Of a stretch of 50,082 bases of DNA, positions 2,298 to 39,587 are shown in pieces. The stretch comes from a virus. Lineage: Duplodnaviria; Heunggongvirae; Uroviricota; Caudoviricetes. A program made the position numbers and the translations under genes. The DNA lies in IMG/VR virus record IMGVR_UViG_2703718827_000002, positions 1-50,082 of that record, one strand, 5' to 3'. Each line of letters opens with the position of its first letter. The first letter of the stretch is position 1. The notes under the pieces are model-generated. The model saw nothing but the letters and a program-made list of their open reading frames with translations. It was not told the DNA's origin and searched no databases.

Positions 2298-2304
2298 GGC
2301 AACC

Positions 2305-2589: not shown

Positions 2590-2607
2590 TTTTTGAGGGG
2601 ATTAACG

Positions 2608-3453
2608 ATGGCAAACGAATTAACAATCACAGCGACGTCGCTTCAGGAGATAGGCGTCGACGTCTCCACCTGGAGCGCGCTGAAGAACAGCATCTACCCT
2701 GGCGCCAAAGACGAATCGGTAATGATGGCGCTTGATTACTGCCGCGCCCGCCAGTTGGATCCGTTGCTCAAACCTGTCCACCTCGTTCCGATGTACGTCA
2801 AAGACTCGAAAACAGGTAAAGGTGACTGGCGCGACGTGGTCATGCCTGGCATCGGGCTTTACCGCATTCAGGCAGACCGTTCCGGCGATTATGCCGGGGC
2901 TCGCGAGCCTGAGTTCGGGCCAGACACGACGCAGACACTTTCTGGTGTCGAGGTGACCTTCCCTCAGTGGTGCAAATACACCGTCTACAAGCGCATGCCC
3001 AGCGGCGAGATCGTCGAGTTCAGCGCCAAAGAATACTGGATTGAAAACTATGCCACCGCCGGCCGCGACACCACGGCGCCGAATGCAATGTGGAAAAAGC
3101 GCCCATACGGCCAGCTGGCGAAATGCGCAGAAGCCCAGGCGTTGCGTAAGGCATGGCCTGAGATTGGACAGCAGCCTACCGCCGAAGAAATGGAAGGCAA
3201 ATCACTGGACGTTGATATCCGTGACGTCACGCCGCGCAACACCACTGAAGCACTTCCACCAGCAGCAAGCGAAGAAACGCTGCAGGCGATAACCGATCTC
3301 TTAACGACACTGGATAAAGACTGGGAGAAAGACTTCCTCCCTGTGTGCAGAGACATCTTCAAACGGCCAATTCTTGAGGCGTCAGACCTCACTGAAGAAG
3401 AGGCACAGAAAGGGTTCAACTTCCTTCAGAAAAAAGCTAAGGCGGCAGCATGA
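2608..3453 (+). CDS. bet: RecT/Red-beta family single-strand annealing protein (Bet-like)
   Basis: C-terminal region closely matches lambda Bet (recalled); ATG at 2608 with GAGGGG RBS (track start 2593 is TTG); stop overlaps exo. Confidence 0.8.
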
Positions 3454-4130
3454 CACCCGAAATTATCCTGTCCCGGACTGGCATTGACGTAACCACGATC
3501 CAACAGGGCGACGAGGCATGGCACCGGCTGCGTCTCGGCGTCATTACTGCCTCTGAAGTGCATAACGTCATTTCCAAGCCGCGCTCCGGCACCAAATGGA
3601 CGGGCATGAAGATGTCCTACTTCCACACCCTACTCGCCGAGGTATGCACCGGCGTAGCACCAGAGGTTAATGCCAAGGCGTTGGCCTGGGGCAAGCAGTA
3701 CGAGGAAGACGCCCGCACCCTCTTCGAGTTCACCACTGACGTGAAAGTCACGGAGTCTCCGATCCTGTTCCGTGACGAGAGCATGCGCACCGCGTGCTCC
3801 CCTGACGGCCTTTGCAGTAACAATTTCGGCCTTGAGCTGAAATGCCCGTTCACCTCCCGCGACTTTATGAAATTCCGCCTCGGCGGTTTCGAAGCCATTA
3901 AGTCCGAGTACATGGCCCAGGTGCAGTACAGCATGTGGGTGACCGGAAAAGACGCCTGGTTCTTTGCCAACTACGACCCGCGCATGAAGCGCGAAGGTAT
4001 TCACCACGTCGTCGTTGAGCGGGACCCGCAGTACATGACCGATTTCAACGAAATGGTGCCGGAGTTCATTGAGAAGATGGACGAGGCGCTGGCAGAGATC
4101 GGCTTCACGTTCGGGGAACAGTGGAAATGA
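3450..4130 (+). CDS. exo: Lambda-type 5'-3' exonuclease (Red-alpha / YqaJ family)
   Basis: Sequence is near-collinear with recalled lambda Exo (MTPDIILQRTGIDV..., [24 protein letters not shown]). Confidence 0.9.
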
Positions 4131-5424: not shown

Positions 5425-5515
5425 CAACAAAATTCCCCGGGTCGCTAAGTCGGCCCTTTTTATTGCTGGCGTTCACCTTCAACCGAATTAACCGACAGTT
5501 CCGGGAGCATTGACC

Positions 5516-6402: not shown

Positions 6403-6619
6403 TACCTGGTACGCCGATGATTTCGGCGCGCCATGCAAAATCCTCCGCGCTACCCACGAAGTAATCCACTACATCCGCAACGGCCGCACCTGCATTGCCA
6501 GCATGGGCCGCTTTAATCAGGATTTCGAGCCGCTGACCAAAGCAGAGGCCGAGCGGATCGCTGAAGAAATCGAAACAGCAGAACACCTGAAGAAGCTGCG
6601 TGCCCATCGCGCGGCGTAA
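6380..6619 (+). CDS. Hypothetical phage protein (79 aa)
   Basis: ATG at 6380 with AAGGTGG RBS inside track ORF 6320..6619. Confidence 0.45.
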   Translation: MFRIIQPNTWYADDFGAPCKILRATHEVIHYIRNGRTCIASMGRFNQDFEPLTKAEAERIAEEIETAEHLKKLRAHRAA

Positions 6620-6627
6620 GGAGAACT

Positions 6628-6858
6628 ATGAGCACCATTCAGGACATCCTAAACCAGCTATCAACCCTGGTCACCGAGGCGCACAAAGTGGCGTGCTCAC
6701 TCGATATTGGTGATGAGCGAACCGAGGCTTTCGAGCTATACGAAGCGCTTCGTCGACTTCAGCGGCAGGGCGCCGCCGGAGAGATTCTCTCAGCAACCAA
6801 CCCTCTTCTCGCCTCGCCATATTACGACGAGGACTGGGACGAAGATGGAGACGACTGA
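6628..6858 (+). CDS. Hypothetical acidic protein (76 aa)
   Basis: AAGGAG RBS; Asp/Glu-rich C-terminus. Confidence 0.45.
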   Translation: MSTIQDILNQLSTLVTEAHKVACSLDIGDERTEAFELYEALRRLQRQGAAGEILSATNPLLASPYYDEDWDEDGDD

Positions 6859-6923
6859 CGCAACTGATAGCCAGTTATGAGCTGGCTATTGGGTGCGAAT
6901 GCACTGCCACGTTATCCCCCTTT

Positions 6924-6950
6924 CAGCCCTCCATTGCGAGGGCTTCTTTT
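6924..6950 (+). terminator. Rho-independent terminator
   Basis: AGCCCTC-cattgc-GAGGGCT hairpin followed by TCTTTTT. Confidence 0.6.
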
Positions 6951-6965
6951 TGCCTGGAGACAGCT

Positions 6966-7181
6966 ATGAATGACAGTATCCTGCTTACCAGTGACGTACT
7001 GGCTCGCTATAAGATTTCCCGGAGCACTCTGTATTTCTGGAGCACCCCGGAGCGAATGCCTGCTGGCTTCACCTGCCCTTTCCCCAAACCAACAATCCCC
7101 GGCAACCCAAAACGCTGGAGAGAGTCGGAGATCGTTTCGTGGGAAATGCAGGTCAACGCCTCTAAAGCTGATACCCAATAA
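6966..7181 (+). CDS. AlpA-family excisionase / phage regulatory protein
   Basis: 71 aa; LARYKISRSTLYFW helix-turn-helix typical of AlpA/Xis-like proteins; convergent with and overlapping the 3' end of the integrase. Confidence 0.6.
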   Translation: MNDSILLTSDVLARYKISRSTLYFWSTPERMPAGFTCPFPKPTIPGNPKRWRESEIVSWEMQVNASKADTQ

Positions 7182-8343
7182 TGCTCTGCAGGTGATTCTG
7201 CCAAATACCCAACCACTCGCGCTGGTCATCCATATAGTCGTGCAGGTTGTATCTGGCCATCACCCCACCCATCTGATGACCAAGCAGCTTTTCAATAACA
7301 TGCGGTGGCGCGCCAAGTTCTGACAACCTGGTTGCAACGGTGCGCCTCAGGTCATGCAGAGACCACTGTTTCATGTCTGTCTTTCTGATCACCTGCATGG
7401 AATAGGTCGAGACTAGGGCCTGAGTAGGTGGAATGTCTTCTTTATCTCGGAACTGAGCCGGTGTTAAAACGTGCTTAGTGACCGAACCTCTTTTATGCTC
7501 CTGAAGCAGCCTGATCGCCACTTCAGGCAATGCCCTCCTGATCGTCTTCCCTGTTTTGTAATCCTCAGCCGGTACCGTCCAGGTCTTTTCATTAAAGTTG
7601 TACCAGTCCCAGCGCGATTTCCTTATTTCTGCAGCCCTGCACCCAGTCAGGAGCATGAACCGTATAACAAGTTGCTGTGATGGAGGGAGCGCGAAAAGTG
7701 TATCCCAAACCACTTTGATCTCTTCGTCGGAGAGTCGCCTCTCCTTCATCTTCGCTGCAATACCAACGTCTGATCTGCGCAAGGATTCAAGCGGGTTGTT
7801 TTTAATTACCCCTCGGTTATGGCAGAACCGGAACGCGCGCTTCATTAATGACAGCATCTCACCAGTAATAACCGAACGCCCCATCTCGTCGAACACATCA
7901 AGCCAGTTAGCCTTGAACGTCTGATCAACCATCGCCCTGCCAATGCGCGGGCTAATGTGCTTCTGAAAGCTCCTGGTATTGGCATCGATTTTGATCAGAC
8001 CCTCGGGAATGCAGTAATGCTTTACCCAGTACTCATACGCCTGGTCAACCGTTAGCGCCTCTATCCTTTCTGCTTTCTCAACCAGAACCTTCTGGCGTGG
8101 ATCGTAACCCTCACTCAGCCAGGCGCGAAACTGCTGCCTGCGGTCTCTTGCCTGCGCTAATGAATAGGCTGGGTATTCACCTATACTGAGTTGCACCGGC
8201 TTACCCTGCCAGCGATAACGGTAGAAGAAAGTTACGCCACCAGTTATGCTTAACCTGACATTAAGCCCGTTTGAATCTGAGAGAACTTCCACACTCTCTC
8301 TGCGCTTACCAAGCGCCTTACGAAGTTTTGTATCTGTGAGCAT
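7162..8343 (-). CDS. int: Tyrosine integrase (P4-type)
   Basis: C-terminal catalytic region with HDLRRT...LLGH...Y; N-terminal MLTDTKLRKA typical of P4-like integrases; ATG at 8343 with AGGGG RBS (track start 8352 is GTG). Confidence 0.85.
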   Translation of the reverse strand: MLTDTKLRKALGKRRESVEVLSDSNGLNVRLSITGGVTFFYRYRWQGKPVQLSIGEYPAYSLAQARDRRQQFRAWLSEGYDPRQKVLVEKAERIEALTVDQAYEYWVKHYCIPEGLIKIDANTRSFQKHISPRIGRAMVDQTFKANWLDVFDEMGRSVITGEMLSLMKRAFRFCHNRGVIKNNPLESLRRSDVGIAAKMKERRLSDEEIKVVWDTLFALPPSQQLVIRFMLLTGCRAAEIRKSRWDWYNFNEKTWTVPAEDYKTGKTIRRALPEVAIRLLQEHKRGSVTKHVLTPAQFRDKEDIPPTQALVSTYSMQVIRKTDMKQWSLHDLRRTVATRLSELGAPPHVIEKLLGHQMGGVMARYNLHDYMDDQREWLGIWQNHLQSIIGYQL

Positions 8344-8645
8344 CGTGTACACCCCTGAGCCATGTACTCAGCAGTGTACACAAAACACGTAAATTGCAAC
8401 CATACAAAATAAAACACGTTAAAGAGTTATAAACAATGAAGTGAGTAACGGCGCGGTTTTGGCGGGAATAATTTTAAACGCAATAAAACACGATAAAGCA
8501 GAACTCGTTGAAGTATTATGCCTCAGGAAGATAAATCCTAACCAGACTGCCAGTCCTTCGGGGCTGGCGCTGTATCTCCTCTGTTCTCCTCAGGAAAATC
8601 ATAGTAGCATCGCGCCTGTGATTTTCCTTTTAAGTCGGTTTTACC

Positions 8646-9044
8646 ATGTCTACAACACATAACGTCCCTCAGGGCGATCTTGTTTTACGTACTTTAGCCA
8701 TGCCCGCCGATACCAATGCCAATGGTGACATCTTTGGTGGTTGGTTAATGTCACAAATGGATATTGGCGGCGCTATTCTGGCAAAAGAAATTGCCCACGG
8801 TCGCGTAGTGACTGTGCGGGTTGAAGGAATGACTTTCTTACGGCCGGTTGCGGTCGGCGATGTGGTGTGCTGCTATGCACGCTGTGTCCAGAAAGGGACG
8901 ACATCGGTCAGCATTAATATTGAAGTGTGGGTGAAAAAAGTAGCGTCTGAACCAATTGGGCAACGCTATAAAGCGACAGAAGCATTATTTAAGTATGTCG
9001 CGGTTGATCCTGAAGGAAAACCTCGCGCCTTACCTGTTGAGTAA
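8646..9044 (+). CDS. yciA: Acyl-CoA thioesterase YciA
   Basis: 132-aa product matches recalled E. coli YciA along its length. Confidence 0.85.
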   Translation: MSTTHNVPQGDLVLRTLAMPADTNANGDIFGGWLMSQMDIGGAILAKEIAHGRVVTVRVEGMTFLRPVAVGDVVCCYARCVQKGTTSVSINIEVWVKKVASEPIGQRYKATEALFKYVAVDPEGKPRALPVE

Positions 9045-9047
9045 TAG

Positions 9048-9080
9048 TCAAAAGCCTCCGGTCGGAGGCTTTTGACTTTC
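9048..9080. terminator. Bidirectional terminator between convergent yciA and tonB
   Basis: Long inverted repeat TCAAAAGCCTCCG / CGGAGGCTTTTGA with A/T runs on both sides. Confidence 0.7.
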
Positions 9081-9083
9081 TGC

Positions 9084-9803
9084 TTACTGAATTTCGGTGG
9101 TGCCGTTAATTTTAAACAGGATATTCACCACAATCCCACTGCCTGGCTTACCCGGCTCATAACGCCATCTGCGCATCGCATTTTTCACCTCACGCTCAAA
9201 CATGTTCGCAGGCTTGGCTGAGAGGATTTGTACGTTATCCACGCGACCATCCGGCGTAACGTCAAATTTAACTTTAACCTGCCCTTCAATGCGCAATGCC
9301 TGTGCTCGTGCCGGATACTGCGGCTGATTACGGCTTAATGCGCGTGGTCCTGAAGCCACACTGGTAACCGGCTTGCTGGTTGCAGCCGTTGCTGTACTTG
9401 ATGTCAGGCGTGCCGGTGCCGTATTTTCAAACGGTGATGCCGGACGCGACTCTACGGGTTTGACATCGCGTTTTGGCTGCTCCTGTACCTTTTTCACCGG
9501 CTTCGGTTTTGGCTTAGGTTTCGGCTTCGGCTTTTCAATGACCACCGGTGCTTCTTTTGGCGGTTCGGGGATCGGCTCAGGTTCCGGTTCTGGCTCTACC
9601 ACCGGCTCCGGTGGCGGCTGAACGGCTTGTGGCGGTTCGAGATCAGCAGGCGTAACCATCGTGACAGAAATCGGCTGCGCAGGCGCAGGTAGTTCAATAA
9701 CCTGATGTACCGAGGTATAGAGCAGACCCGCCACAACAGCACCATGAATGCAGACCGAAAGTAACGTCGGCCAGGGGAAGCGGCGAGGTAAATCAAGGGT
9801 CAT
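9084..9803 (-). CDS. tonB: TonB energy-transducing protein
   Basis: MTLDLPRRFPWPTLLSV..., (EP)n and (KP)n repeats, C-terminal domain; 239 aa from ATG at 9803 (track ORF extends upstream to 9854). Confidence 0.9.
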   Translation of the reverse strand: MTLDLPRRFPWPTLLSVCIHGAVVAGLLYTSVHQVIELPAPAQPISVTMVTPADLEPPQAVQPPPEPVVEPEPEPEPIPEPPKEAPVVIEKPKPKPKPKPKPVKKVQEQPKRDVKPVESRPASPFENTAPARLTSSTATAATSKPVTSVASGPRALSRNQPQYPARAQALRIEGQVKVKFDVTPDGRVDNVQILSAKPANMFEREVKNAMRRWRYEPGKPGSGIVVNILFKINGTTEIQ

Positions 9804-10026
9804 TGAAGTCATAATCATTTCAGTAGAAAAACCAGGTCTCGATTTTAAATGCAAATAGCAATCATATTCAATAAGGCAAGACGATCAGGATCAGTGAAAA
9901 TGTCATTTTTGGCGTAATTACCCTTACTTTATGCATGGCCTTAACAAAGACATCATCTTTCCGTTGCAGATCTTCGCCCTTTCAAATAACGTACTTTACA
10001 ACTTTCCCGAACAAGGAGTTGTGCCC

Positions 10027-10323
10027 GTGTTGTATGTTATTTACGCTCAAGACAAAGCTGATAGCCTCGAAAAACGCCTTTCCGTTCGTCCGGCACATTT
10101 AGCACGTTTACAGTTACTGCATGATGAAGGTCGTTTGTTGACAGCTGGTCCAATGCCAGCGGTAGACAGTAACGATCCAGGGGCTGCGGGATTTACTGGC
10201 TCAACCGTTATTGCTGAATTTGAATCGCTGGAAGCAGCTCAGGCCTGGGCCGATGCTGACCCGTACGTAGCGGCAGGAGTCTATGAACACGTTTCAGTGA
10301 AACCATTTAAGAAAGTGTTCTAA
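10027..10323 (+). CDS. yciI: YciI-like protein
   Basis: 98-aa product from GTG start matching the recalled yciI neighbour of tonB; track ORF 9931..10323 extends upstream. Confidence 0.7.
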
Positions 10324-10387
10324 TTTATTAGAAATTTGCACTTAAATCAAAAAGTTACGGACAATTCAACCACCAATCAATAAATTA

Positions 10388-10430
10388 AAGGGCACATTAA
10401 AGTACACAATATTTGTGCCCTTCTCTGTTT
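10388..10430. terminator. Hairpin between yciI and the invertase gene (possible bidirectional terminator)
   Basis: AAGGGCACA ... TGTGCCCTT inverted repeat with T-rich flanks; loop is long, so weaker. Confidence 0.35.
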
Positions 10431-10441
10431 CTTTCCCGTTA

Positions 10442-10990
10442 TCAGCTAGCTGGAAACTTTTTATACAGAGTTGAGAGCCCTACTCCATACGTTTTTGATA
10501 CGCTTTGTCGTGATTCACCGGTTGCCATCCGCTCCCCCATTTCCCGCCATTGCTCATCCGTGAACTTAGGCCTGCGACCACCAACTCGCCCTTTTGCCCT
10601 GGCTACGGCCAGCCCTGCTAAGGTACGTTCGCTATTAAGATCAGATTCATATTGTGCTGCGGAAAGGATGTTACGAAAGTTATAGCGGCCGCTGGCTGTT
10701 TTGAGATCCACGCCATCGGTAATACTGCGGAAGTTGATACCCTTTTCCTGTAACTGCTGGAACATCAACAGCGCATGCAGAACGTTGCGGCCTATCCTGT
10801 CCAGCTTCCAGACCACCAGTTCATCCCCCGGCTGCATAGTGGCGATCAGCCGTTTTAGAACCGGCCGATTCGATTTCCTCCCGCTGGCATGCTCTTCAAA
10901 AATTTTCTCACAACCCGCTGACTTGAGCGCCGTTAGTTGCAATTCAGTGTCCTGGTGGTTTGTTGATACTCGGGCATAACCGTAAATCAT
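10442..10990 (-). CDS. Serine recombinase, Hin/Gin/Pin-type DNA invertase
   Basis: MIYGYARVSTNHQD...VVWKLDRIGR...C-terminal HTH GLSTLYKK; 182 aa; typical resolvase/invertase catalytic domain. Confidence 0.85.
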   Translation of the reverse strand: MIYGYARVSTNHQDTELQLTALKSAGCEKIFEEHASGRKSNRPVLKRLIATMQPGDELVVWKLDRIGRNVLHALLMFQQLQEKGINFRSITDGVDLKTASGRYNFRNILSAAQYESDLNSERTLAGLAVARAKGRVGGRRPKFTDEQWREMGERMATGESRQSVSKTYGVGLSTLYKKFPAS

Positions 10991-11194
10991 GAGTGCTTCT
11001 CCTGTTGTAAAAACAGGAGAAGAGGCGAAATATCACCTGATTCAGAAAAATATTTGAAAGGTTGGTTTGGGAGAAGCGGCAAAACGGGATGTGGGAACAG
11101 GGGAAAATCAGATACCGGATATGGCTTTTTTTGCCAGTGGTGATGGATGGATGAAATTACCCAACGGTAAAATCCTGCAATATGGTCGAGGTGC

Positions 11195-11418
11195 GGTTAC
11201 GCCGCCGAGGTATCGATACAATTGTGTTATGTGGGATCTCGACCAATATCGGTGTTGAATCCACCGCCCGCAATGCCTGGGAACTTGGCTTTAATCTGGT
11301 GATTGCCGAAGACGCCTGTAGTGCCGCCAGCGCCGAGCAACACAATAACAGCATTAATCATATCTACCCGCGCATCGCCCGTGTGCGTAGCGTGGAAGAG
11401 ATCCTTCACGCGTTATGA
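11195..11418 (+). pseudogene. yecD: 3' fragment of isochorismatase-family gene yecD
   Basis: Only the C-terminal ~75 codons ([18 protein letters not shown]...RVRSVEEIL) are present; the upstream in-frame sequence is unrelated; stop overlaps the yecE start. Confidence 0.6.
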
Positions 11419-11520
11419 TTTACATCGGTCTGCCGCAATGGTCGCATCCTAAATGGGTGCGGTTGGGGATCACCAGCCTTGAAGAGTATGCCCGTCACTT
11501 TAACTGCGTGACGCGGGCAT
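11415..11520 (+). pseudogene. yecE: 5' fragment of yecE, truncated at a prophage junction
   Basis: [32 protein letters not shown] matches the recalled YecE N-terminus for about 35 codons, then diverges into AT-rich phage-end sequence. Confidence 0.6.
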
Positions 11521-11638
11521 TTTAAAAATCACTAAAGAACGCCCAAGAGCATGTGTTTTCTTTAGTTTATTCAATGCATTAAAAAATAGTTTCGCATGAA
11601 ATTCGGTAAACTTCATGTGTGCAATAATGTCCCATTCA

Positions 11639-11690
11639 TGCCCCAAAATGCCCCAAAGCAGACATTTTTGCCCCAAGTATGCCCCACAAG
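11639..11690. repeat. Four direct TGCCCCA(A/C)A repeats with helical phasing
   Basis: Copies start at 11639, 11649, 11669 and 11680 (spacings 10, 20, 11 bp), about 120 bp inside the yecE junction. Confidence 0.6.
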
Positions 11691-19605: not shown

Positions 19606-22600
19606 TTATGTGAGGCGTTGACTGGTGTTGAAGTTGTTGGTCAGTGCGTTGGAGAGTTTTCCTTTGCCGCTGGCGACGTCACTGACAGCCATGGCATAGC
19701 CCTGCTGCGCCCCGCGCTTGACTGCGGCCTCGAGCATGGCCAACTGCTGCTCAGTCGGATCCCCGTTAACCTGAATGACCGGGCTGTAACTGAACGCCCC
19801 GCCACCACCGCCCATATCGCGGTTACTGATGACGCGACCGTTATCGCCGGGGATCATGTACTGCTTGCCGGTGCTGGCCTGGTAAATCTCTGGCTTACCT
19901 TTCTCGCCGACCTGATACAGGCCACCGGCTGATACCGGTCCGCCATTGTACCGCGCTCCCGCTATTGAAAGGGCCTGCGCCATGCCAACTGTTGAAGCTA
20001 TTCCCGCCTGTGCCGGCACTGCATTCGCGCCAGCAGTTGCAAGAGATGTCATTGCGGCTGCAGGGGCCATGGAAGCGGCGATTAGCTGCCCTTGCGCAAT
20101 AGCCATTCCAGAAGCGGCGGTCATGCCAGCCTGACCCATAATTACAGACTTCAACCACTCAACCCCCATCTGAACAAAGGAGTTGATGACGCTGTTAAGT
20201 ACCGTCGAGCCTAGCGACCGCATAGCTTCGCTGACAGACATGCTGCCAGTGATTATGCCAGTGAGGGCGTTGGAGGCGTTTCCAGCAAATGAATCAAACG
20301 CCGCGGCAGCTACTTCATATCCTGCATTTTGTTGTCGCCATATCTCCCACTGCGCCGCTATGCGCTGTTGCTCGTACTGAGTGTTAGCGGCATTCATCAG
20401 CTCAAGTCCGCGCTGAGTAATCTGCCCCTTCTGCGATTCAAACTGCTGGATTAGAGCCAACTCCTGCGCGTGCTGGTTAGCCAGCTGTTGGACAGGGTCA
20501 ATCTGCCCCCGAGCTTCCTGCATGGGGCTTACAGTTTGCTGAGCGCGTATCTTAGCCAGATTAACCTGGTGCTGAGCCTCCAGTTGCTCACTGGTCTGAT
20601 TGTACTGCTGCTGAGTGATTTTTTTGGCGGCCAGTGCAGTTTGCAGATCTTTAACATCCTGCTGGTAAGACGCATTCTCTCTGGCTTCAGGGAGCAGTTT
20701 TTCTGCCGCAGCCTGGGCTTTGAGGGCATTAGCCGTATCCCATATTTCTCCACGGTATTTACCGGCAAGAGCAATTTGCTCTTGGGTGGCTCCCTTACCT
20801 AGTGATTGCTGAGCCTGTAATACTGCCTGCTCCCGGCTTAACTCCTGCGTTGAGCCAGCAGCGAGCTCTGATTGCTGGCGCAGATTTTCAAGTTTTTGGT
20901 TTACCGATTCCTGCTGGTTAGCAAGTTTCTTAGCCTCAGATTCCGCTTCCTTGGTGGCCTTTTTGTTATTTTGCTGCGCTTGTTGAGCATCGAATTCAGC
21001 TGCTGCTCTGTCACGAGCAAGGTTAACATCCGCCTCTGATCCACCGAGTTTCCTAATGTCCTGCTCAGCCCTTAATTGCGCTCGCTTCCTGTCATTAAGC
21101 TCGCTCTGAAGTGTTACCTGATCCTGTAGCTTATCCAGATACTCCTGAACATCTTTCGGGCGTTCAATCATGAGGCTGCTGGAGTTGAATTTGTCTTTTG
21201 CCTTGGCCGCAAAATTAATCATATCTCCCAACTTGCTCATCATGCCGGCAGCAATTCCCGCTTCCTGCCCATCCCTGCGCAGCAAATCGATACCTTGCTT
21301 CATCGTTCCGTTTAGCGTAGCGCGGCCAATGTTAATGGCGTTTTGGGTCTGACTCAGTCTGTTCTGGGCCTTCTCCAGCTCAAGGGTAGCTATAGCTAGG
21401 TTATCCTGTGCGCCGCTAAGCGCCTCGGCAGCCTGCCGCCCTCTCGTTGTATTCGTACCCCAGTTTGCAATTTCTCGCTGCTGTCGCTGGACAGCCGATG
21501 TCGCGTCATTGAATTCCTTTTGTGCGTCTGATACCGCGTCACTTAATTCAGGCAGGCTTTGGCTTAGCTTTCCTATCGTTGCCGCCAGCTCTGTATGCGA
21601 CATCGTCTGGAATTTTGAGCTCAGATCGTTAACGCTATCTGCAAGGGCATTAGCGTCATTCCTGGCCTCTTTTGCGCGCTGTGAAAAGTAAAGGATTGCA
21701 CTAGCAGCAAGCATTGCCGCTCCGGCAGGCCCACCAATTAACCCGAGAGCCCTGCTAGCCAGGCTGGCACCAGATGAGAGAGCCATTTGAGCAGCCCTGT
21801 TTGCCGCCAGTGCTCGATTATAATTATCAACCGCACCGGCAGCCGCAACCCTGGCAACGGACAAGCGCTGTTCAGCTGCCGCAGCGTTGGTTTCGCTGAT
21901 AGCAGTAAGGCGCATCATTTCTGCGAGCCTTATCTCATCTAAGGCCCGTTGTTTTGCGACCGCTGCAGCCCTGAGGTCTGCCGCTGCTTTATTCGCGGAA
22001 GCCTGAGCTGCTAATGATTCTTCTGCTGAAAGCATGCGTGATGCGGCAGCTGCTTTGATTTTAGCCGCAGTAGCCATAGTTAAGGCGCCGACATACCGAC
22101 TCCCAAGAATAGCCGCGGCACCAGTCAGCAACGCGCTCAGTCCGCCAATATTCTCACTGATGGTGACCACTGCATCACTAAAAATTGCCGCGCCTGTTTT
22201 AACCGTAGAATTTTCACCGAAGAACTTAGTGATGTTATTGCCAGCAACCTGAAGAGCCTGGCTGATAGTCGTAGTGGTGTTGGCAAATTCAGCACCGATT
22301 AAACTCCCCTGGGAAAGCAGACCGTTAACCACAACATCTGTCGTTAGCTTGCCCTGTGCCGCCATGTTGCGCATCTGGCCGATGCTGACCCCCATAGAGT
22401 CAGCAAGGGCTACGATAAGGCGGTTACCCTGCTCGTTTACAGAGTTGAATTCCTCGCCGCGTAAAGCTCCAGAAGCAAGGCCCTGAGATAGCTGAATAAT
22501 CGCGTTCTCGGCCTCTTGCGCCGTGGCACCTGATACAACGAACCCTTGGTTTATAATTGTGGTTAACTTCGCCAGATCATCTGCGCTGGTCCCGTACTGC

Positions 22601-22980
22601 CTGGTTGCCCTTTCTAGTCTTGCGTAGAGGGATGCCGTTGCATCTAAACTACTGCGAGTTTGCTGAGTAATGTTGAAAACCCGCTCGGTTACATCGGCAA
22701 GTTGTTCTGATGGGCGAATAGAGTTTGATAATTTATTGTTAACAGTAGCCCACGCATCAGCGTATTCAGCCACCTGCTGAACTGACAATGCCGCGGTGAG
22801 CGCAACCGCTACACGTGACAGACTCGACATTGAACGCTCAGTAGTATCAATTGAGCGCGTTGTTTTATCAAAGCCGCGCTCCATCAGATCAAGGCGCTGA
22901 TTAACGCGCTGCTGAGCAGTAAGTAGCCCGCGCACATCCATTTCAATGTCGTAATAAATACCGCCAGCGTTCTCAGCCAT
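19606..22980 (-). CDS. Tail tape measure protein
   Basis: 1124 aa, Ala/Gln-rich coiled-coil-like composition, Gly-rich C-terminal region, position between chaperone and tail tip genes. Confidence 0.85.
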   Translation of the reverse strand: MAENAGGIYYDIEMDVRGLLTAQQRVNQRLDLMERGFDKTTRSIDTTERSMSSLSRVAVALTAALSVQQVAEYADAWATVNNKLSNSIRPSEQLADVTERVFNITQQTRSSLDATASLYARLERATRQYGTSADDLAKLTTIINQGFVVSGATAQEAENAIIQLSQGLASGALRGEEFNSVNEQGNRLIVALADSMGVSIGQMRNMAAQGKLTTDVVVNGLLSQGSLIGAEFANTTTTISQALQVAGNNITKFFGENSTVKTGAAIFSDAVVTISENIGGLSALLTGAAAILGSRYVGALTMATAAKIKAAAASRMLSAEESLAAQASANKAAADLRAAAVAKQRALDEIRLAEMMRLTAISETNAAAAEQRLSVARVAAAGAVDNYNRALAANRAAQMALSSGASLASRALGLIGGPAGAAMLAASAILYFSQRAKEARNDANALADSVNDLSSKFQTMSHTELAATIGKLSQSLPELSDAVSDAQKEFNDATSAVQRQQREIANWGTNTTRGRQAAEALSGAQDNLAIATLELEKAQNRLSQTQNAINIGRATLNGTMKQGIDLLRRDGQEAGIAAGMMSKLGDMINFAAKAKDKFNSSSLMIERPKDVQEYLDKLQDQVTLQSELNDRKRAQLRAEQDIRKLGGSEADVNLARDRAAAEFDAQQAQQNNKKATKEAESEAKKLANQQESVNQKLENLRQQSELAAGSTQELSREQAVLQAQQSLGKGATQEQIALAGKYRGEIWDTANALKAQAAAEKLLPEARENASYQQDVKDLQTALAAKKITQQQYNQTSEQLEAQHQVNLAKIRAQQTVSPMQEARGQIDPVQQLANQHAQELALIQQFESQKGQITQRGLELMNAANTQYEQQRIAAQWEIWRQQNAGYEVAAAAFDSFAGNASNALTGIITGSMSVSEAMRSLGSTVLNSVINSFVQMGVEWLKSVIMGQAGMTAASGMAIAQGQLIAASMAPAAAMTSLATAGANAVPAQAGIASTVGMAQALSIAGARYNGGPVSAGGLYQVGEKGKPEIYQASTGKQYMIPGDNGRVISNRDMGGGGGAFSYSPVIQVNGDPTEQQLAMLEAAVKRGAQQGYAMAVSDVASGKGKLSNALTNNFNTSQRLT

Positions 22981-22995
22981 TTGCTATCTCCGGGC

Positions 22996-23020
22996 AATAA
23001 AAAACCCCGCCGGAGCGAGG
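22996..23020 (-). terminator. Terminator-like hairpin plus T-run immediately upstream of the tape measure start
   Basis: On - strand: CCTCGC-TCCG-GCGGGG (one G-U pair) followed by TTTTTT; same family as the 15128 and 32005 elements. Confidence 0.5.
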
Positions 23021-23039
23021 TCTATAACATGGAACTTGG

Positions 23040-23420
23040 TTAGTTTAGGAGGCCTGATTTAACTTCTGTATTTGAATTATTAAATAAGTAATTATCTACA
23101 ATATCGCCCTTAAACACGATTATAAGCTGCTTCATGTTGGTAGTAGCGCCGTTATCAAATAGTCCATAGATGGGAATAAATGCTTTCCCGCTGACCTGTG
23201 TGTTTGTGAAAACATAGTGCCACTGTTCTTTCCCATCACTGGAGATTGATACCCCAGTTGGATCTCCATATGCAGCCTTAACCTCTTGCTTCGTCGTCTT
23301 TCCTTTGATTATTTTACTCTGAATGCCAATCTGCGTTTCTTGCTCAATCGACTTATTGCCGCCAGAAGCACAACCGGCAAGTACAACCGCTATTGCTGCA
23401 ACCAATAGAACCTTTTTCAT
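23040..23420 (-). CDS. Lipoprotein with BamE (SmpA/OmlA)-like fold signature
   Basis: MKKVLLVAAIAVVLAGC lipobox; KQEVKAAYGDP...EQWHYVF resembles the BamE motif; ATG 23420 with GGGGA RBS (track start 23480). Confidence 0.6.
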   Translation of the reverse strand: MKKVLLVAAIAVVLAGCASGGNKSIEQETQIGIQSKIIKGKTTKQEVKAAYGDPTGVSISSDGKEQWHYVFTNTQVSGKAFIPIYGLFDNGATTNMKQLIIVFKGDIVDNYLFNNSNTEVKSGLLN

Positions 23421-23560
23421 ATCCCTATCCCCATCAGTAAATGATGCGGCAATCGTAGCAGAGGGGAAGCGATACGACAAAGCAACCTGTTCGCTTATCA
23501 GGATGTTCAGCGGTACGATAGCAAGGTAGCCTTGAAGCAGGCATCAACCAAGGAATCATC

Positions 23561-24034
23561 ATGGATAAGTTTGACCGTAAACTTCAGCGAGAAATACTAC
23601 AGGCTTGCGTAGATAGCTATCCAGCCGCACCTCTTCTCGAACAATTTAACCTTACGGAAGTAGCAGAATGTGCAGAAAGCAACATTCAGAAGCTATTAGC
23701 TAACATAAATTACCTGTGCGAACACGGACTAATTAAAAATAACAGCTCCATTATTCTTAAGGACCGCTCCATCCTCACCCGGATCACCGCAACAGCAAAA
23801 GGCATCGACTTCATGCTCAATGATGGTGGTCTATCAGCGATCCTGAACGTCCAGACTATAAAGCTTCATCGTGACTCAGTGGTCGTACTCGAAGACCTGA
23901 TCGCCATTTCAAACATGAACGACGAGCAGAAGGAAAAAGCCAAGTCGACTCTCGGCGAAATGTCGACGGAAGCCATTAAAACCGTGGTGCAAGCCGTGAC
24001 GACTGCAGGGTTATCAAAGCTGCTCGGGCAATGA
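23561..24034 (+). CDS. Hypothetical protein (157 aa), opposite strand to the late operon
   Basis: AAGGAA RBS; divergent from the lipoprotein gene, convergent with the Panacea operon; no family recognised. Confidence 0.5.
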   Translation: MDKFDRKLQREILQACVDSYPAAPLLEQFNLTEVAECAESNIQKLLANINYLCEHGLIKNNSSIILKDRSILTRITATAKGIDFMLNDGGLSAILNVQTIKLHRDSVVVLEDLIAISNMNDEQKEKAKSTLGEMSTEAIKTVVQAVTTAGLSKLLGQ

Positions 24035-24050
24035 AGCAACCCTTCAAAGC

Positions 24051-24078
24051 AAAAAAACCACCAACGGTGGGTTTTTGC
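24051..24078. terminator. Bidirectional rho-independent terminator
   Basis: AAAAAAACCACC-AACG-GTGGGTTTTT between convergent genes. Confidence 0.7.
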
Positions 24079-24531
24079 TTAGGTTCCTGTCAATCCATCA
24101 TCTGGCTCAGGCTGATCAATTAACTGAGCATTGGTGCAGTATCTTTCTTTGAACCTTATCATCTTCGGTTTTGCTTGTTCCGAAATGTCAAAACCAGACA
24201 GAATTCTGTCAAAAACAGCTTCAGCCATATCGTCATGAGTCGTAACTTCGCCAGCTGCGTGTTTTCTTTCTAAATTATCAATGCGCCAAATTACAGCTTC
24301 AGCATAAACGATATAGCTTGGATGTTGGATAAACCTGTGATCACCAGGTTGGAGAACACATGCGTCATCATGCGGCACGCCAGGCTTAATGCTTGACACA
24401 TTAACAACCAATATACAGTAACAGTCGTTAACTGGATAATAAACAGGATCGTTGCATATCACATGAAGATGATTGCATGGCCCACTTGGAGCCAAAACCG
24501 TTCCTTTTCGATAAGGTTGAAATGTGCTCAT
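24079..24531 (-). CDS. Hypothetical protein (150 aa), candidate effector/toxin partner of the Panacea gene
   Basis: ATG overlaps the Panacea stop (ATGA coupling); no family recognised; several Cys/His residues. Confidence 0.5.
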   Translation of the reverse strand: MSTFQPYRKGTVLAPSGPCNHLHVICNDPVYYPVNDCYCILVVNVSSIKPGVPHDDACVLQPGDHRFIQHPSYIVYAEAVIWRIDNLERKHAAGEVTTHDDMAEAVFDRILSGFDISEQAKPKMIRFKERYCTNAQLIDQPEPDDGLTGT

Positions 24532-25100
24532 GACAATTGAGAAGAAAACTCCTTAAGTTCTTGTGACTCACGCATACTCCTAAGTATATTCTCTACTTCT
24601 TCAGGAGTTTTCCCAGCATCGATAAATATTTCACGTACATCTATAAGAGTTCGTGAGCCATGCGGGTCATGCCACTCAGGGCAAACGTTTCTAAGATGAG
24701 TCATATCGCGCAATTCATATCTGTTCATATGCCCATATTGTGCATATATTTCATCCAAAATGCGGATATCTGCCCTGCTCAATTCATCGAAGACTTCATC
24801 AGCGTCCATCTCACGAGGGTCGGTTCGTAAGCAGACGTCATGATGATCGGTTTTTATCAAACGATACCAGTAGTCACCATCAATGTCAGCGCGACCACGA
24901 ATCAGATCCAGTGTAGTTGACATAACCGGACCGTGGGGCATTGAGTAAAGCTTGTCTTCACCCATCATGCGACCATGGCGAATCATTGACTGCCGGTTTG
25001 CCAAGTATAGCAGCTTCATAAGCTTCAGATATGCCATGCGCCCGCCGCGTTTAAGTAGCAGGTAAGCAGCCATCTGAGCCACTTTTTCTTCGCTAAACAT
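24528..25100 (-). CDS. Panacea-domain (DUF4065) protein, PanA/SocA-like antitoxin candidate
   Basis: N-terminal VAQMAAYLLLKRGGRMAYLKLMKLLYLANR...MPHGPV matches the DUF4065 signature; ATG 25100 with GAGG RBS (track start 25112 is TTG); AT-rich upstream region. Confidence 0.6.
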   Translation of the reverse strand: MFSEEKVAQMAAYLLLKRGGRMAYLKLMKLLYLANRQSMIRHGRMMGEDKLYSMPHGPVMSTTLDLIRGRADIDGDYWYRLIKTDHHDVCLRTDPREMDADEVFDELSRADIRILDEIYAQYGHMNRYELRDMTHLRNVCPEWHDPHGSRTLIDVREIFIDAGKTPEEVENILRSMRESQELKEFSSQLS

Positions 25101-25169
25101 ATTGAACCTCAATCACTTACAAAATACAGAACGGAAAATTGATGTATACATATCGTTTTATTGATTCTG

Positions 25170-25198
25170 AGTTTATTACCTCAAGGTCAATCCTTCAA
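25170..25198 (-). promoter_or_regulatory. Candidate sigma70 promoter for the Panacea operon
   Basis: On - strand: TTGAAG, 17-bp spacer, TAAACT, about 70 nt upstream of the ATG, within an AT-rich intergenic region. Confidence 0.3.
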
Positions 25199-25410
25199 CC
25201 TTTGGTTGAATCTAGCGCGTTCAAAATAGCCTTAAATGTCACTCAAAAAAGCACAAAATAGACGTGTACCAGGACACACCTCAAATCATCGCCTCTTGTA
25301 GCGCTTCTGGCTTCGTTTTAGAGGGGGTTAAATCGATCTCACATTTTGTGCGGTATGTGCCATCGATCACGCACAGTATCATTCTGACAATAAAATCACC
25401 CTTGAGTACT

Positions 25411-26109
25411 CTATCTCTCCTGCTCCATCATCGCCTGTCTGCGCTTACGGCGCGTAAAGTAGTCATCAGCTGCGTGATCGTACTCTTCGCGGGTGTACCC
25501 TTTCTGCTCAGGGTACTTAGCGATGAGCATTAGCTGAAACTCGGTCATCGTCAGTTGTCCGGCCTCTTCCTTGCTGATACCGAAGTGGTTCCGCGCTGCG
25601 ATGATGTAATCTGATGCCCGGAATTCAGATGTTGTATCACTGGATTCGTGCCGCTGGAGCTTTCTAATTTTCGCTTTACCGATGATGCCGTGCATCATCA
25701 GACTTTTGGCGACGATCACCATGCTTTCTGGCGGCATGGTGCCCGGGCGCCAGACGAAGCTACGCTTGCGTGATTTCCCGGGCTTCATCCAGCCAACCAG
25801 ATCGCCGATATCATCGTTACAGCACGCCGTAAGCACCGTATGCGCTGCCATGATGGCCTTGCGTGACAGGAGCCCGCTTTGCATAAACCTCAGGACACAA
25901 TCTGGAAAGCGGCTGTACTCATCGCGTATATAGGCCTCAGCTGCACGCTGTGCGAATGGTGTCGTCTCGTCATTGCACAGGTCATAGAACGCCTGAACGA
26001 TTTCAGCCGGATCGCCAATTCGCGACATGGCAAGCAGTGACGGGCGGAAGAAATAATCCCTGTCTCCGGCAGTAATGACGCATTCGCCAAACTCTTTAAC
26101 TGGTGTCAT
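25411..26109 (-). CDS. Putative tail assembly chaperone (G/GT position)
   Basis: Position between major tail and tape measure; N-terminal GDRDYFFRP resembles chaperone motif; single 232-aa ORF with no visible frameshift partner. Confidence 0.45.
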   Translation of the reverse strand: MTPVKEFGECVITAGDRDYFFRPSLLAMSRIGDPAEIVQAFYDLCNDETTPFAQRAAEAYIRDEYSRFPDCVLRFMQSGLLSRKAIMAAHTVLTACCNDDIGDLVGWMKPGKSRKRSFVWRPGTMPPESMVIVAKSLMMHGIIGKAKIRKLQRHESSDTTSEFRASDYIIAARNHFGISKEEAGQLTMTEFQLMLIAKYPEQKGYTREEYDHAADDYFTRRKRRQAMMEQER

Positions 26110-38177: not shown

Positions 38178-38639
38178 TTACTTCAAGCACTGAGTGCTTA
38201 GATATTCCTGAAGATAGCCAACCTGCTTCATCACTGTGGCGATTCTTTCTCTGAGGGTGAAATAATCCCGTTCAGCGGAGTCAGTAAGTCGGGGGCCGGA
38301 AGCATCGCCCATGCCGCTGGAGCCGGTCGTTCCGTTCGCGGGACAGTTTGCGTTGAGCTGCAGCCGCTTACGGCCAGCAATGACATCGCTATGCAGACGC
38401 TCAATGGTTTCTTTCGCATCAGCTAGTTCTCCGGTGTATTTGGCATCCAGTGCAGCGACATCACGCTGGCGGGCCTGCATGTCTTTTATGGTGGTGTTAG
38501 CCAGGCTGAGTTTCTCAGTGGCTTTATCGCGCTGGTCTTTATAAGCGATGGCGTTGTCGCGGTAGTGGTTAATCGCCCAGGCCATGGAAACGAGCAGGCA
38601 GATAACGACAGCACAGATGATTGCTGTTAATCGGCTCAT
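38178..38639 (-). CDS. Rz-like inner-membrane spanin
   Basis: N-terminal TM helix, coiled-coil periplasmic domain, ATGA overlap with endolysin stop, embedded Rz1 ORF. Confidence 0.75.
38231..38419 (-). CDS. Rz1-like outer-membrane lipoprotein spanin (embedded in Rz, +1 frame)
   Basis: [20 protein letters not shown] lipoprotein signal, Pro-rich mature peptide, fully nested in Rz. Confidence 0.7.
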
Positions 38640-39130
38640 TTCTGGCCCCACTCGCAAACTTCGCGCTCAATCTCGCGCCGGGTTATCAGTCCCTTCCACT
38701 GCTTGCCACCGGCATACGTCCAGCGTTGCAGTTCTTTGCATGCCCCCGGCACGTCTCCGGCGTTCAGCTTCTTCAGCAGCGTCGAGCTGGCAAAAGCACC
38801 AGAGCCAACGTTATAGGTGAAGGAGTAAAGCGCGGCGCGGGTTGGCTCAGGAATGCGAACCTTGATCAGCGGGTCGATAGCATTTGCCACCTTTCGCAGA
38901 TCGGCCTTCAGCATGTTGTCGCACTCTTTGTCGGTGTATCGGTGACCGCGGCGAATGTCCGCTCCGGTGTGCCCATCGCAAACAGTCCAGACGCCGACCA
39001 CATCCTGATAGGCGTAATAGCGCCGTCCTTCCAGCCCATCGGCATTGCCCAGCATTACTGCAGCAATGGTGATGGCTCCGGATCCGCCAACAATGGCACC
39101 CACCAGCTTATTCCTCAACGTTGGGTTCAT
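38636..39130 (-). CDS. SAR endolysin (GH24 lysozyme)
   Basis: N-terminal Gly/Ala-rich signal-anchor-release helix followed by T4-lysozyme-like core ([16 protein letters not shown]). Confidence 0.8.
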
Positions 39131-39511: not shown

Positions 39512-39587
39512 TGGTGCTGATTGACGGAGTTGAACCGCCGACATCCTGCTTACAAGGCAGGCGCTCTACCTACTGAGCTAAATCAGC
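39512..39587 (-). tRNA. tRNA-Thr (anticodon TGT), phage-encoded
   Basis: Hand-folded cloverleaf: 7-bp acceptor stem GCTGATT/AATCAGC, D-arm GCTC/GAGC, anticodon arm CCTGC-CTTGTAA-GCAGG, T-arm GGCGG-TTCAACT-CCGTC, 3' ACCA; differs from recalled host tRNA-Thr. Confidence 0.8.

Follow-up and report, generated by a model that had tools for sequence, protein, structure and literature searches.

Envelope proteins encoded by morons are a main route through which prophages alter how fit and how phage-sensitive their hosts are, and to our knowledge only a few of them have a known mechanism (Cor, Llp, gp15, SieA, Bor and Lom). The Cor proteins of phages phi80, N15, HK022 and HK225 and the Llp protein of T5 are lipoproteins that block FhuA from the periplasmic side, and in phage lambda the interval from cI to oL is the rexAB slot, the home of exclusion genes that are expressed in the lysogen. 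In HK97 the interval from the tail chaperone to the tape measure gene is occupied by the gp15 moron, which is expressed in the prophage state and whose product prevents genome injection (PMC3594210), while lipoproteins encoded in the structural cluster of the mEpimmI siphophages exclude OmpA- and LamB-dependent phages upon expression from a plasmid (PMC11893012).

The locus compared with these systems here lies in a window of 50,082 nucleotides, by which we mean the whole stretch of DNA analysed (IMG/VR record IMGVR_UViG_2703718827_000002). The prophage that carries the locus is a temperate siphophage of the ES18-like type, inserted at the phi80 att site, and the host is E. coli rather than Klebsiella. 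The ends of the window are near neighbours in other E. coli prophages, and a circular phage record carrying tonB was accordingly considered. This was rejected in favor of two prophages flanking yciA-tonB-yciI, because in E. coli strain E3 the int-side prophage stands alone beside yciA. The gene of interest and its surroundings comprise the following features.

19606..22980, minus strand: tape measure protein, 1124 aa, downstream border of the hotspot (Pfam TMP_3, E 1.7e-56)
22990..25400, no strand assigned: low-GC cargo island (43.7% GC) within the moron hotspot that the DUF6246 and tape measure genes enclose
22996..23023, minus strand: intrinsic terminator AGACCTCGCTCCGGCGGGGTTT followed by a T-run, 16 nt ahead of the tape measure ATG
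23040..23420, minus strand: prolipoprotein CDS, ATG at 23420, TAA at 23042..23040
23040..23339, minus strand: BamE/BLIP-fold domain, about residues 28-122, two helices and a long three-stranded sheet
23370..23420, minus strand: signal peptide with lipobox, residues 1-17, MKKVLLVAAIAVVLAGC, read from the sequence and matched by Pfam LPAM_1
23423..23432, minus strand: ribosome-binding region GGGGATAGGG, kept among relatives even at <50% protein identity
23452..23480, minus strand: candidate sigma-70 promoter, -35 TTGTCG (23480..23475), 17-nt spacer, extended -10 TGcTACGAT (23460..23452)
25411..26109, minus strand: DUF6246 protein at the tail assembly chaperone position, upstream border of the hotspot (Pfam PF19759, E 5.5e-79)

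The interval 23040..23420 flagged in an earlier, sequence-only reading of this DNA corresponds exactly to one minus-strand CDS, and the placement inside the tail module claimed there is borne out by its flanks, the DUF6246 and tape measure genes. The CDS encodes a prolipoprotein of 126 aa, with a mature form of 110 aa (~12 kDa, pI 8.0). Given a full-length match to phrog_3135 (E 5.6e-28; residues 1-122 against profile positions 1-112 of 114), the 1928 cluster representatives (50% identity) recovered by profile search at E<=1e-3, and a dN/dS of 0.04-0.10, indicative of strong purifying selection, this is a maintained gene and not a chance open reading frame. PHROG 3135 itself is labelled an uncharacterised phage protein family. 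A 146-aa frame from TTG 23480, called in some databases, is an over-extension that buries the signal peptide and contains the promoter, and the overlapping plus-strand frames 23286..23408 and 23323..23529 are unsupported. Rfam and tRNA scans gave no match within or close to the gene.

The insertion point is a site of variable cargo. The DUF6246 protein belongs to the same family as ES18 gp17, and the interval between the DUF6246 and tape measure genes holds differing cargo in RAH1, Serratia, Tatumella, E. coli strain 53 and ES18, the last of which was annotated as a "possible moron" by the ES18 authors. Among the IMG/VR loci the gene lies within an ES18-like tail module in 20 of 29 and is always co-oriented with the tail genes, while other cargo at this site occurs on either strand. 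Morons, as defined by Juhala and Hendrix, have their own promoter, their own terminator and a deviant base composition, are inserted between genes that in related phages adjoin or have a different spacing, and are transcribed from the repressed prophage. In silico, the gene has a candidate promoter and a terminator of its own, a GC content of 40.4% against 53-54% in the flanking tail genes, and a place at this variable-cargo site, and as read from these signals it is a classical autonomous moron of promoter, gene and terminator. We hold this anatomy of the cassette with high confidence.

The promoter is a candidate proposed on the grounds of consensus and conservation. Of 36 non-identical relatives, 24 have the extended -10 pattern TGnTAnnnT at 33-52 nt ahead of the start codon, as against 3.3 +/- 1.7 in shuffled sequences; some 65 nt upstream of the gene are conserved although the upstream neighbours differ, and at several loci the candidate adjoins the terminator of the upstream neighbour. 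A generic promoter scan did not report it, because only 8 of 12 hexamer positions match. Of 33 relatives, 25 likewise have a terminator behind the gene, and near-identical terminators stand after cor in HK225 and after the gp20 moron in ES18. No partner gene is conserved across the contexts examined, and the moron lipoprotein works alone.

The comparison with HK97 gp15 (Cumby et al. 2012; PMC3594210) is the closest in terms of anatomy. Both genes are independent promoter-gene-terminator units of deviant GC content in the same slot between chaperone and tape measure genes, and both encode a small envelope protein from a host gene family, YebO in the case of gp15 and a BamE-like one here. The two differ in that gp15 is an inner-membrane protein of unrelated sequence and fold, whereas the moron lipoprotein is predicted to reside in the outer membrane, and whereas gp15 is expressed from the prophage and demonstrably excludes phages, in our case prophage expression is predicted and exclusion proposed.

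With Cor and Llp, the moron lipoprotein has in common that it is a small phage lipoprotein, predicted to reach the outer membrane and to act there from the periplasmic side, whose gene lies among or beside tail genes, and with the HK225 cor cassette a near-identical terminator. Homology to Cor is confined to the signal peptide (a phrog_1119 match over residues 1-50, E 5.7e-5), and the 24% identity found by BLASTP against HK225 Cor is likewise driven by it. Cor is 77 aa in length with another fold, as opposed to a 110-aa mature protein of BamE fold. Furthermore, Cor and Llp are borne by FhuA-dependent phages, whereas the family described here is known from siphoviruses, a myovirus, the immunity regions of lambdoid phages, plasmids and an integrative element. 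The Lpp021 and Lpp010 lipoproteins of the mEpimmI group (PMC11893012) likewise come from temperate siphophages of E. coli whose tail genes are similarly arranged; in mEp021, however, gene J is gp79 and the lipoprotein gene gp81, a number that places the latter after J and not ahead of the tape measure gene. These proteins were considered as homologues and rejected, a tblastn search of the phage collection having returned 7 records and no mEp phage.

Enterobacteria, Burkholderia, Acetobacter and marine bacteria all host members of the family, on phages, plasmids or integrative elements. One siphovirus and one myovirus encode lipoproteins that are 98% identical; of the 126 plasmid records with a relative, 94 are conjugative; and 394 of 5426 genomes contain an E. 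coli integrative element (pilV/traD/mobQ) that carries one. On one Burkholderia plasmid the family's copy lies ~2 kb from a YadA-like gene. A scan of genome contigs, with the alignment of close relatives as query, returned only 2 species-representative genomes, and the close subgroup is therefore a rare accessory gene. The homologues of PhiR26_1, S107 and a Herbaspirillum phage are situated between cI and the repeats of the oL operator, and a fourth lambdoid case, L021, has the gene between cI and N. The first three fill the same cI-oL interval as lambda rexAB, with an unrelated sequence and mechanism, and the window's copy differs in lying in the tail module rather than the immunity region. 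Taken with the candidate promoter, this placement of the homologues suggests that the gene is expressed in the lysogen.

The sequence-only reading had also described the product as a lipoprotein with a LAGC signal and a mature domain resembling the BamE/SmpA-OmlA motif, and both parts of the description stand. The signal peptide consists of MKK, with two lysines, the 10-residue hydrophobic core VLLVAAIAVV, and the lipobox LAGC (L14-A15-G16-C17), in which Cys17 is the predicted site of lipidation; it is matched by Pfam LPAM_1 with 19.7 bits and conforms to the pattern [LVI][ASTVI][GAS]C within some 15-25 residues of the N-terminus. Each of the 40-odd relatives examined retains a lipobox. The residue at +2 is alanine, such that the Asp retention signal is absent, and Asp occupies +2 in none of the relatives; on the +2 rule, Lol-dependent sorting to the outer membrane is therefore predicted. 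The only lipoproteins of the prophage are Rz1 and the moron lipoprotein.

The resemblance of the mature domain to BamE is real. Two helices pack against a three-stranded antiparallel sheet in a BLIP-like fold, and the alpha-alpha-beta-beta-beta core is the same as that of BamE, itself an outer-membrane lipoprotein. The protein scores 23.1 bits against Pfam BamE PF04355 (just under the gathering score of 23.2, E 6e-5), the same model recognises 68 of the 83 members of the family (best E 1.8e-9), and hhalign aligns the family with E. coli BamE at a probability of 91% (E 1e-6), the motifs G-x-T-x-x-x-V, G-x-P and W-x-Y-x-F being common to both. Structural similarity is at the level of the fold only, with 12-15% identity, and BFVD yielded only weak matches to unnamed phage SmpA/OmlA lipoproteins, such as those of Pseudomonas phages B3 and PP9W2.

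By the same comparisons, the moron lipoprotein is, on sequence grounds, not a BamE orthologue. The NCBIfam BamE equivalog PRK11548 reaches 16 bits against a cut-off of 93 (E 0.009) and covers residues 35-74 only. The family lacks the N-terminal RPDINQGNY segment of BamE, has no counterpart in the hhalign alignment to BamE residues about 21-37, and differs in having longer strands and a conserved 14-residue insertion after beta2 (residues 77-90, SGKAFIPIYGLFDN) that is specific to it. While E. coli bamE lies in the locus recN-bamE-yfjF, the moron gene lies in a low-GC prophage island. The automatic name given to the family in RefSeq and IMG (by PGAP and the IMG pipeline), "outer membrane protein assembly factor BamE", is misleading. 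According to the account in PMC12523085, which cites Kumar and Konovalova 2023, BamE contacts BamA and BamD through its N-terminal region and strands beta1-beta2, and it is exactly in these regions, compared by region and not residue by residue, that the moron family diverges from BamE. The N-terminal BamE-like domain of Acinetobacter TpgA (PDB 9VNJ, PMC12523085) binds the periplasmic end of an outer-membrane barrel; there it is fused to an OmpA_C peptidoglycan-binding domain and co-transcribed with the partner adhesin, whereas the moron lipoprotein is a single domain without a conserved neighbour.

Taken together, the moron lipoprotein probably changes the cell envelope to the benefit of the lysogen, most plausibly by excluding other phages. 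Superinfection exclusion is the best hypothesis for its function, and a tentative one, drawn from position and analogy only. Most of the weight of the case is carried by the conserved promoter-gene-terminator unit and by the recurrence of the gene in the cI-to-oL (rexAB) slot, both of which the sequence-only reading had missed. The likeness to known exclusion morons that it did propose agrees with the architecture and position found here, namely the HK97 gp15 slot and the terminator near-identical to that of HK225 cor, and its remark that a BamE-like fold would be new to this role is consistent with the literature searched, in which we found no paper linking the two and no experiment on any member of the family.

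A mechanism consistent with the proposal can be outlined. The product would leave the cytoplasm through Sec, receive its lipid at Cys17 and be processed by signal peptidase II, and a short tether of ~10 residues would keep the compact domain of BamE fold close against the outer membrane on its periplasmic side. [quoted passage not shown] The lysogen would thereby be protected from the entry of other phages or mobile elements at an outer-membrane or periplasmic step, and through late read-through the infected cell might be protected too. A blocker of the phage's own receptor, in the style of Cor and Llp, is countered by the occurrence of a 98% identical protein in both a siphovirus and a myovirus, and by the existence of relatives on conjugative plasmids and on an integrative element, neither of which encodes a receptor-binding protein. 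The J-like tail-tip protein gave no clue to a receptor, its last 300 aa matching only uncharacterised Klebsiella and Pseudomonas prophage proteins, and PADLOC has no model for the lipoprotein gene or its three island neighbours. Strong purifying selection gives no sign of an arms race.

The spread over a siphovirus, a myovirus, plasmids and an integrative element suits a general envelope or fitness function at least as well as it does a blocker of one phage's own receptor, and it is a fitness factor of lysogenic conversion that fares best among the alternatives, unlikely as we consider it to be. Under such an explanation the lipoprotein would strengthen or modify the envelope (with respect to osmotic, serum, detergent or bile tolerance) and have no direct effect on incoming phages. 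Its models are lambda Bor, for which such a role has been proposed, and the BamE-fold stress lipoprotein OsmE. The moron anatomy and the lysogen-expression slots apply to it in the same way, carriage by phages, conjugative plasmids and an integrative element is what would be expected of receptor-independent cargo that benefits the host, and strong purifying selection is in keeping with it. Against this, no features of a stress-regulated promoter were seen, neither OsmE nor Bor is a sequence relative (NCBIfam OsmE gives 13 bits against a cut-off of 65), and the repeated use of exclusion-gene slots, those of rexAB and HK97 gp15, favors an anti-phage role.

The BLIP/BamE fold is also one that neutralises other proteins: BLIP inhibits beta-lactamase, and BtiO neutralises a Bacteroides T6SS effector. 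A periplasmic inhibitor or immunity protein directed at a T6SS effector, colicin, pesticin, or the muralytic or peptidase activity of a phage tail is therefore conceivable, and we think it improbable. The conserved FIPxYG insertion (residues 81-86) resembles a surface loop and could be an inhibitory one, and an orphan immunity gene on a mobile element would be plausible, but a cognate effector or toxin gene adjoins the lipoprotein gene in none of the contexts examined, and the likeness in question goes no further than the fold. An NCBIfam match to a "putative T6SS immunity periplasmic lipoprotein" is weak (E 0.03) and far under the cut-off.

BamA is a receptor for some Stx phages and for CDI toxins, and a more ambitious form of the exclusion proposal would bring this machine to the fore. 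Here a diverged BamE paralogue common to siphoviruses, myoviruses, lambdoid phages, conjugative plasmids and integrative elements would bind, from the periplasmic side, to an essential machine of the outer membrane, such as BamA/BAM or some other conserved barrel, and allosterically lock the entry port against rival phages, CDI toxins and conjugation systems. We regard this as a long shot; if true, both the fold and the target would be new to exclusion, and a mobile element would have co-opted a subunit of outer-membrane assembly.

Even less probable, in our estimation, is that the protein acts as a mimic of BamE, docking on BamA POTRA5 and BamD in place of or beside BamE and retuning outer-membrane protein assembly, with effects that could include the levels of receptor proteins, the display of RcsF, or the conformation of BamA. 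The receptor role of BamA and the hhalign probability speak for it, as does the predicted outer-membrane lipoprotein with a short tether, as in BamE. The regions of contact described in PMC12523085 (N-terminal, beta1-beta2) are nevertheless those in which the family differs, the BamE equivalog score falls far below its cut-off, and TpgA illustrates that a BamE-like fold need not bind BAM. Last, a plain BAM subunit, as the automatic names would have it, or a decaying captured copy without function, merits hardly any credence, given the wide margin by which the equivalog model failed, the position in a prophage cargo island rather than at recN-bamE, the bamE that E. coli already has of its own, and the family's own insertion, promoter, terminator and strong purifying selection.

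Returning to superinfection exclusion, the family in question is large and is found repeatedly in two classical exclusion slots. If the moron lipoprotein is an exclusion factor, its fold would be new to this class of proteins, as its target probably would be, and it would be relevant to phage therapy and to the prediction of host range in E. coli and Klebsiella.

The gene that the sequence-only reading had placed in the tail module at positions 23040-23420, as encoding a lipoprotein with an LAGC signal, is confirmed: these coordinates correspond exactly to one minus-strand gene (ATG at 23420, TAA at 23042..23040) of 126 residues, lying between the tape measure gene and the DUF6246 gene, which occupies the position of the tail assembly chaperone, and the product's N-terminus, read from the sequence as MKKVLLVAAIAVVLAGC, has a positive n-region, a 10-residue hydrophobic core, the lipobox LAGC, Cys17 and Ala at +2. 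The lipobox is kept in all relatives examined, and Asp at +2 is found in none. Some records, including Klebsiella phage RAH1 (ORF59) and cluster P0001, call a 146-aa ORF from TTG 23480, carried in one RefSeq genome as 'META domain-containing protein'; we consider the ATG start to be right, because the longer ORF would bury the signal peptide and overlaps a candidate promoter. It can be taken as established in silico that the product is predicted to be exported, lipidated and directed to the outer membrane, and that a short tether carries its BamE-type domain. The match to phrog_3135 spans the entire gene (E 5.6e-28); the family, already catalogued under this number and elsewhere automatically named BamE, has no assigned function. 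When 1.84 billion cluster representatives were searched with a profile, 1928 relatives passed E<=1e-3 and 516 passed E<=1e-10; almost all are 125-135 aa long. Versus relatives with unsaturated dS, dN/dS is 0.04-0.10, and the gene is maintained by selection.

RefSeq and IMG automatically name the gene 'outer membrane protein assembly factor BamE', which is misleading because the product fails the NCBIfam BamE equivalog (16 bits versus a cut-off of 93), differs in the interface regions, and is encoded in a host, E. coli, that already has a bamE at recN-bamE-yfjF. The lipoprotein lacks the part of BamE around residues 21-37, and a conserved 14-residue insertion, SGKAFIPIYGLFDN (residues 77-90, with Pro83 nearly invariant across the family), follows strand beta2. 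PMC12523085, citing Kumar and Konovalova 2023, assigns the BamE contacts with BamA and BamD to the N-terminal region and strands beta1-beta2. We rejected a role as a BAM subunit on the equivalog score, the missing segment, the insertion and the separate host bamE; both the extended TTG start and the BamE name look wrong. Phage SmpA/OmlA lipoproteins elsewhere, such as those of Pseudomonas phages B3 and PP9W2, have likewise received no name.

The window is E. coli chromosome: yciA-tonB-yciI at 8400..10300 is 99.9% identical to E. coli and occurs in 5423 of 5426 complete genomes. Phage DNA is seen on both flanks of these host genes (window 1-10440), with the following landmarks.

2593..4130: RecT and YqaJ exonuclease genes, on the integrase side
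7162..8352: integrase, on one side of yciA-tonB-yciI
10305..11648: phi80-type pinL invertase/attP end, on the other side; the prophage starts at ~10.3 kb
38178-38657 and 38231-38419, minus strand: Rz/Rz1 embedded spanin pair
39512-39587, minus strand: phage-borne tRNA-Thr, anticodon TGT

Two mosaic prophages flanking tonB are likely, since E. coli strain E3 carries the yciA-side prophage alone. In other E. coli prophages the sequences at the two ends of the window lie close together (cI, then an Nmad5-family gene). Up the window from pinL/attP come a tail fibre with S74 chaperone, a J-like tip protein, DUF1833, a CHAP-like tip protein and the tape measure, then the island with the lipoprotein gene, DUF6246, an Ig-like major tail protein, a DUF6260 capsid protein, portal and terminase, and farther on Rz/Rz1, the tRNA, NinG, DnaB helicase and a LexA-type cI at 49.1-49.9 kb. 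Rz1 (62 aa, lipobox VSGC) is the sole other lipoprotein within the window. At 47597-47706, the 301-aa gene upstream of that for the DnaB helicase contains iteron-like direct repeats TGGACAnCGGCTGGACA; the gene is probably an O-like initiator and the repeats the origin of prophage replication.

The lipoprotein gene is accompanied by its own signals.

23480..23452, minus strand: candidate promoter (-35 TTGTCG, 17-nt spacer, extended -10 TGcTACGAT)
downstream of the candidate promoter, minus strand: conserved ribosome-binding region GGGGATAGGG
23420..23040, minus strand: lipoprotein CDS
23023..22996, minus strand: terminator, hairpin CCTCGCTCCGGCGGGG and T-run TTTTTTATTGCCCG, ending 16 nt 5' of the tape measure ATG

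A generic promoter scan did not list 23480..23452, because only 8/12 hexamer positions match, and the case for the promoter rests on conservation. The upstream ~65 nt are conserved across loci with unrelated upstream neighbours, whose terminator in several instances abuts the conserved block. TGnTAnnnT lies 33-52 nt 5' of the start codon in 24 of 36 non-identical family upstream regions, many otherwise unalignable, as against 3.3 +/- 1.7 (maximum 11) in 2000 shuffles; this count is somewhat inflated by relatedness, yet the motif variants differ (TGTTAAGAT, TGATATCAT, TGCTACCAT, TGATAGGAT and others). The ribosome-binding region immediately 5' of the start codon, GGGGATAGGGAT (23421-23434), is nearly unchanged at 45-50% protein identity (e.g. 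loci L028, L031 and L034), a conservation that exceeds the need of a Shine-Dalgarno sequence alone.

A terminator lies 3' of the stop codon in 25/33 relatives, and that of the window is near-identical to those after cor (HK225, mEp390) and the ES18 gp20 moron, and resembles that after the homologue in Alteromonas phage P24 (positions compared: 22996-23023 of the window, 2509-2530 of locus L052 and 2533-2554 of L051); such a common 'moron terminator' may be a recombination joint for cassette swapping. The cassette fits the published definition of a moron (PMC3594210): it is a gene with a candidate promoter and a terminator of its own, its GC content deviates, and it sits between structural genes that are conserved. 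Its carriage as a predicted self-transcribing unit, given the candidate promoter, is established in silico.

Among phages, RAH1 has a 99% identical copy in the same position, and PDP110P1, a myovirus-type phage that is unrelated, carries genes for sheath and tube and is also on record as a 48-kb circular E. coli 'plasmid', has a 98% identical copy before its tape measure gene, where 98.9% DNA identity extends from 12 nt 5' of the ATG to the end of the terminator. Twenty of 29 IMG/VR loci fall in an ES18-like tail module (after DUF6246 in 18, before it in 2), one in a myovirus and one in a lambdoid phage, with seven unplaced; in the 20, the gene is always co-oriented with the tail genes, whereas other cargo of this DUF6246-to-tape-measure hotspot occurs on either strand. 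In ES18 itself, DUF6246 (gp17) is followed by three 'possible morons' (gp18-20), after which the same terminator precedes the tape measure (gp21). Hotspot copies also occur in Serratia and Tatumella prophages, a Klebsiella circular phage (36% identity only) and E. coli strain 53, accompanied by antirepressor, Arc, KilA-N and Bro cargo. A homologue follows cI in E. coli PhiR26_1, Salmonella S107/S135/S137 and a Herbaspirillum phage (recorded as a plasmid); because operator-like repeats matching the cI-cro interval lie downstream of it, we assign it to the cI-oL interval, which in lambda holds rexAB, and in another locus (L021) it lies between cI and N. Repeated placement of the family in slots of lysogen-expressed genes is established in silico. 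One IMG/VR contig (L032) holds two diverged paralogues ~4.5 kb apart (1451-1837 and 5983-6369).

The surrounding 2.4-kb island has 43.7% GC and the lipoprotein gene 40.4%, versus 53-54% in the bordering DUF6246 and tape measure genes. Its other genes are as follows.

23561-24034, plus strand: divergent 157-aa gene (phrog_3983, function unknown; weak DUF2513 similarity)
24079..24531, minus strand: 150-aa partner (phrog_19071, no Pfam hit), with a 4-nt overlap with the next gene
24528..25112, minus strand: SocA/Panacea-domain protein, antitoxin-like (Pfam E 3.6e-20)

The last two look like a PanA-type antitoxin-toxin pair, which adjoins the lipoprotein gene again in loci L014 (100% identity) and L026 (77-83%). 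The 157-aa gene shares a 140-bp intergenic region with the lipoprotein gene, and is beside it in four IMG/VR loci (L010, L011, L012, L014) and absent there in RAH1 and the myovirus.

Beyond phages, tblastn found family members in 126 plasmid records (109 Burkholderia, plus Acetobacter, Cupriavidus and others), 94 of them predicted conjugative, and a 38-40% identical member lies on an E. coli integrative element (pilV, traD, mobQ, repL) present in 394/5426 genomes, E2348/69 among them. The close subgroup is rare (6/5426 E. coli genomes, 2 species-representative genomes). That the family is common to several kinds of mobile element is established in silico. No neighbour gene was conserved across the phage, plasmid and integrative-element contexts, and the lipoprotein therefore appears to act alone. 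On a Burkholderia glumae plasmid (L040, 6941-14183) a member stands in one co-oriented cluster with the genes for a DsbD-N-domain protein and for a YadA-like trimeric autotransporter of 1571 aa. This recalls TpgA, in which a BamE-like domain binds the barrel of an adhesin of this type; all 109 Burkholderia records may be one plasmid lineage, so that the proximity could be coincidence.

As to function, we tentatively favour superinfection exclusion: the lipoprotein would block superinfection at an outer-membrane or periplasmic step, and its co-orientation with the late operon would have it expressed in lytic growth as well, shielding progeny from receptor-bearing debris, a protection proposed for Llp and Cor. 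T5 Llp acts on FhuA in the same geometry as BamE-fold adaptors on the periplasmic side of barrels. We favour this reading because the slots are those of rexAB and HK97 gp15, the latter being the first described moron, in the same chaperone-to-tape-measure slot, prophage-expressed and exerting a tail-dependent block of genome injection (PMC3594210); because phages that depend on OmpA or LamB have been shown to be excluded by unrelated lipoproteins, encoded in the structural cluster of E. coli siphophages of a similar kind (PMC11893012); because Cor cassettes have the same terminator; because BamE-fold domains bind barrels as periplasmic-side adaptors (BamE-BamA, TpgA-AtaA barrel; PMC12523085); and because of the late-operon co-orientation. 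Against exclusion, and chiefly against a blocker of the phage's own receptor, are the same protein in a siphovirus and a myovirus and the presence of the family on plasmids and an integrative element; the purely purifying selection also counts against it. A host-fitness conversion factor of the Bor/OsmE type is a rather unlikely alternative, and a periplasmic inhibitor or immunity protein comparable to BLIP or BtiO is improbable. A BamE mimic docking on BAM is very doubtful, because the parts that differ are the BamE interface regions.

The literature searched yielded no paper tying a BamE-like lipoprotein to phage exclusion. A moron-encoded envelope lipoprotein is of a known kind, and it is the fold, the two-slot distribution and the spread across types of mobile element that set this family apart. 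The lipoprotein is a well-defined and easily testable candidate that has a large family behind it.
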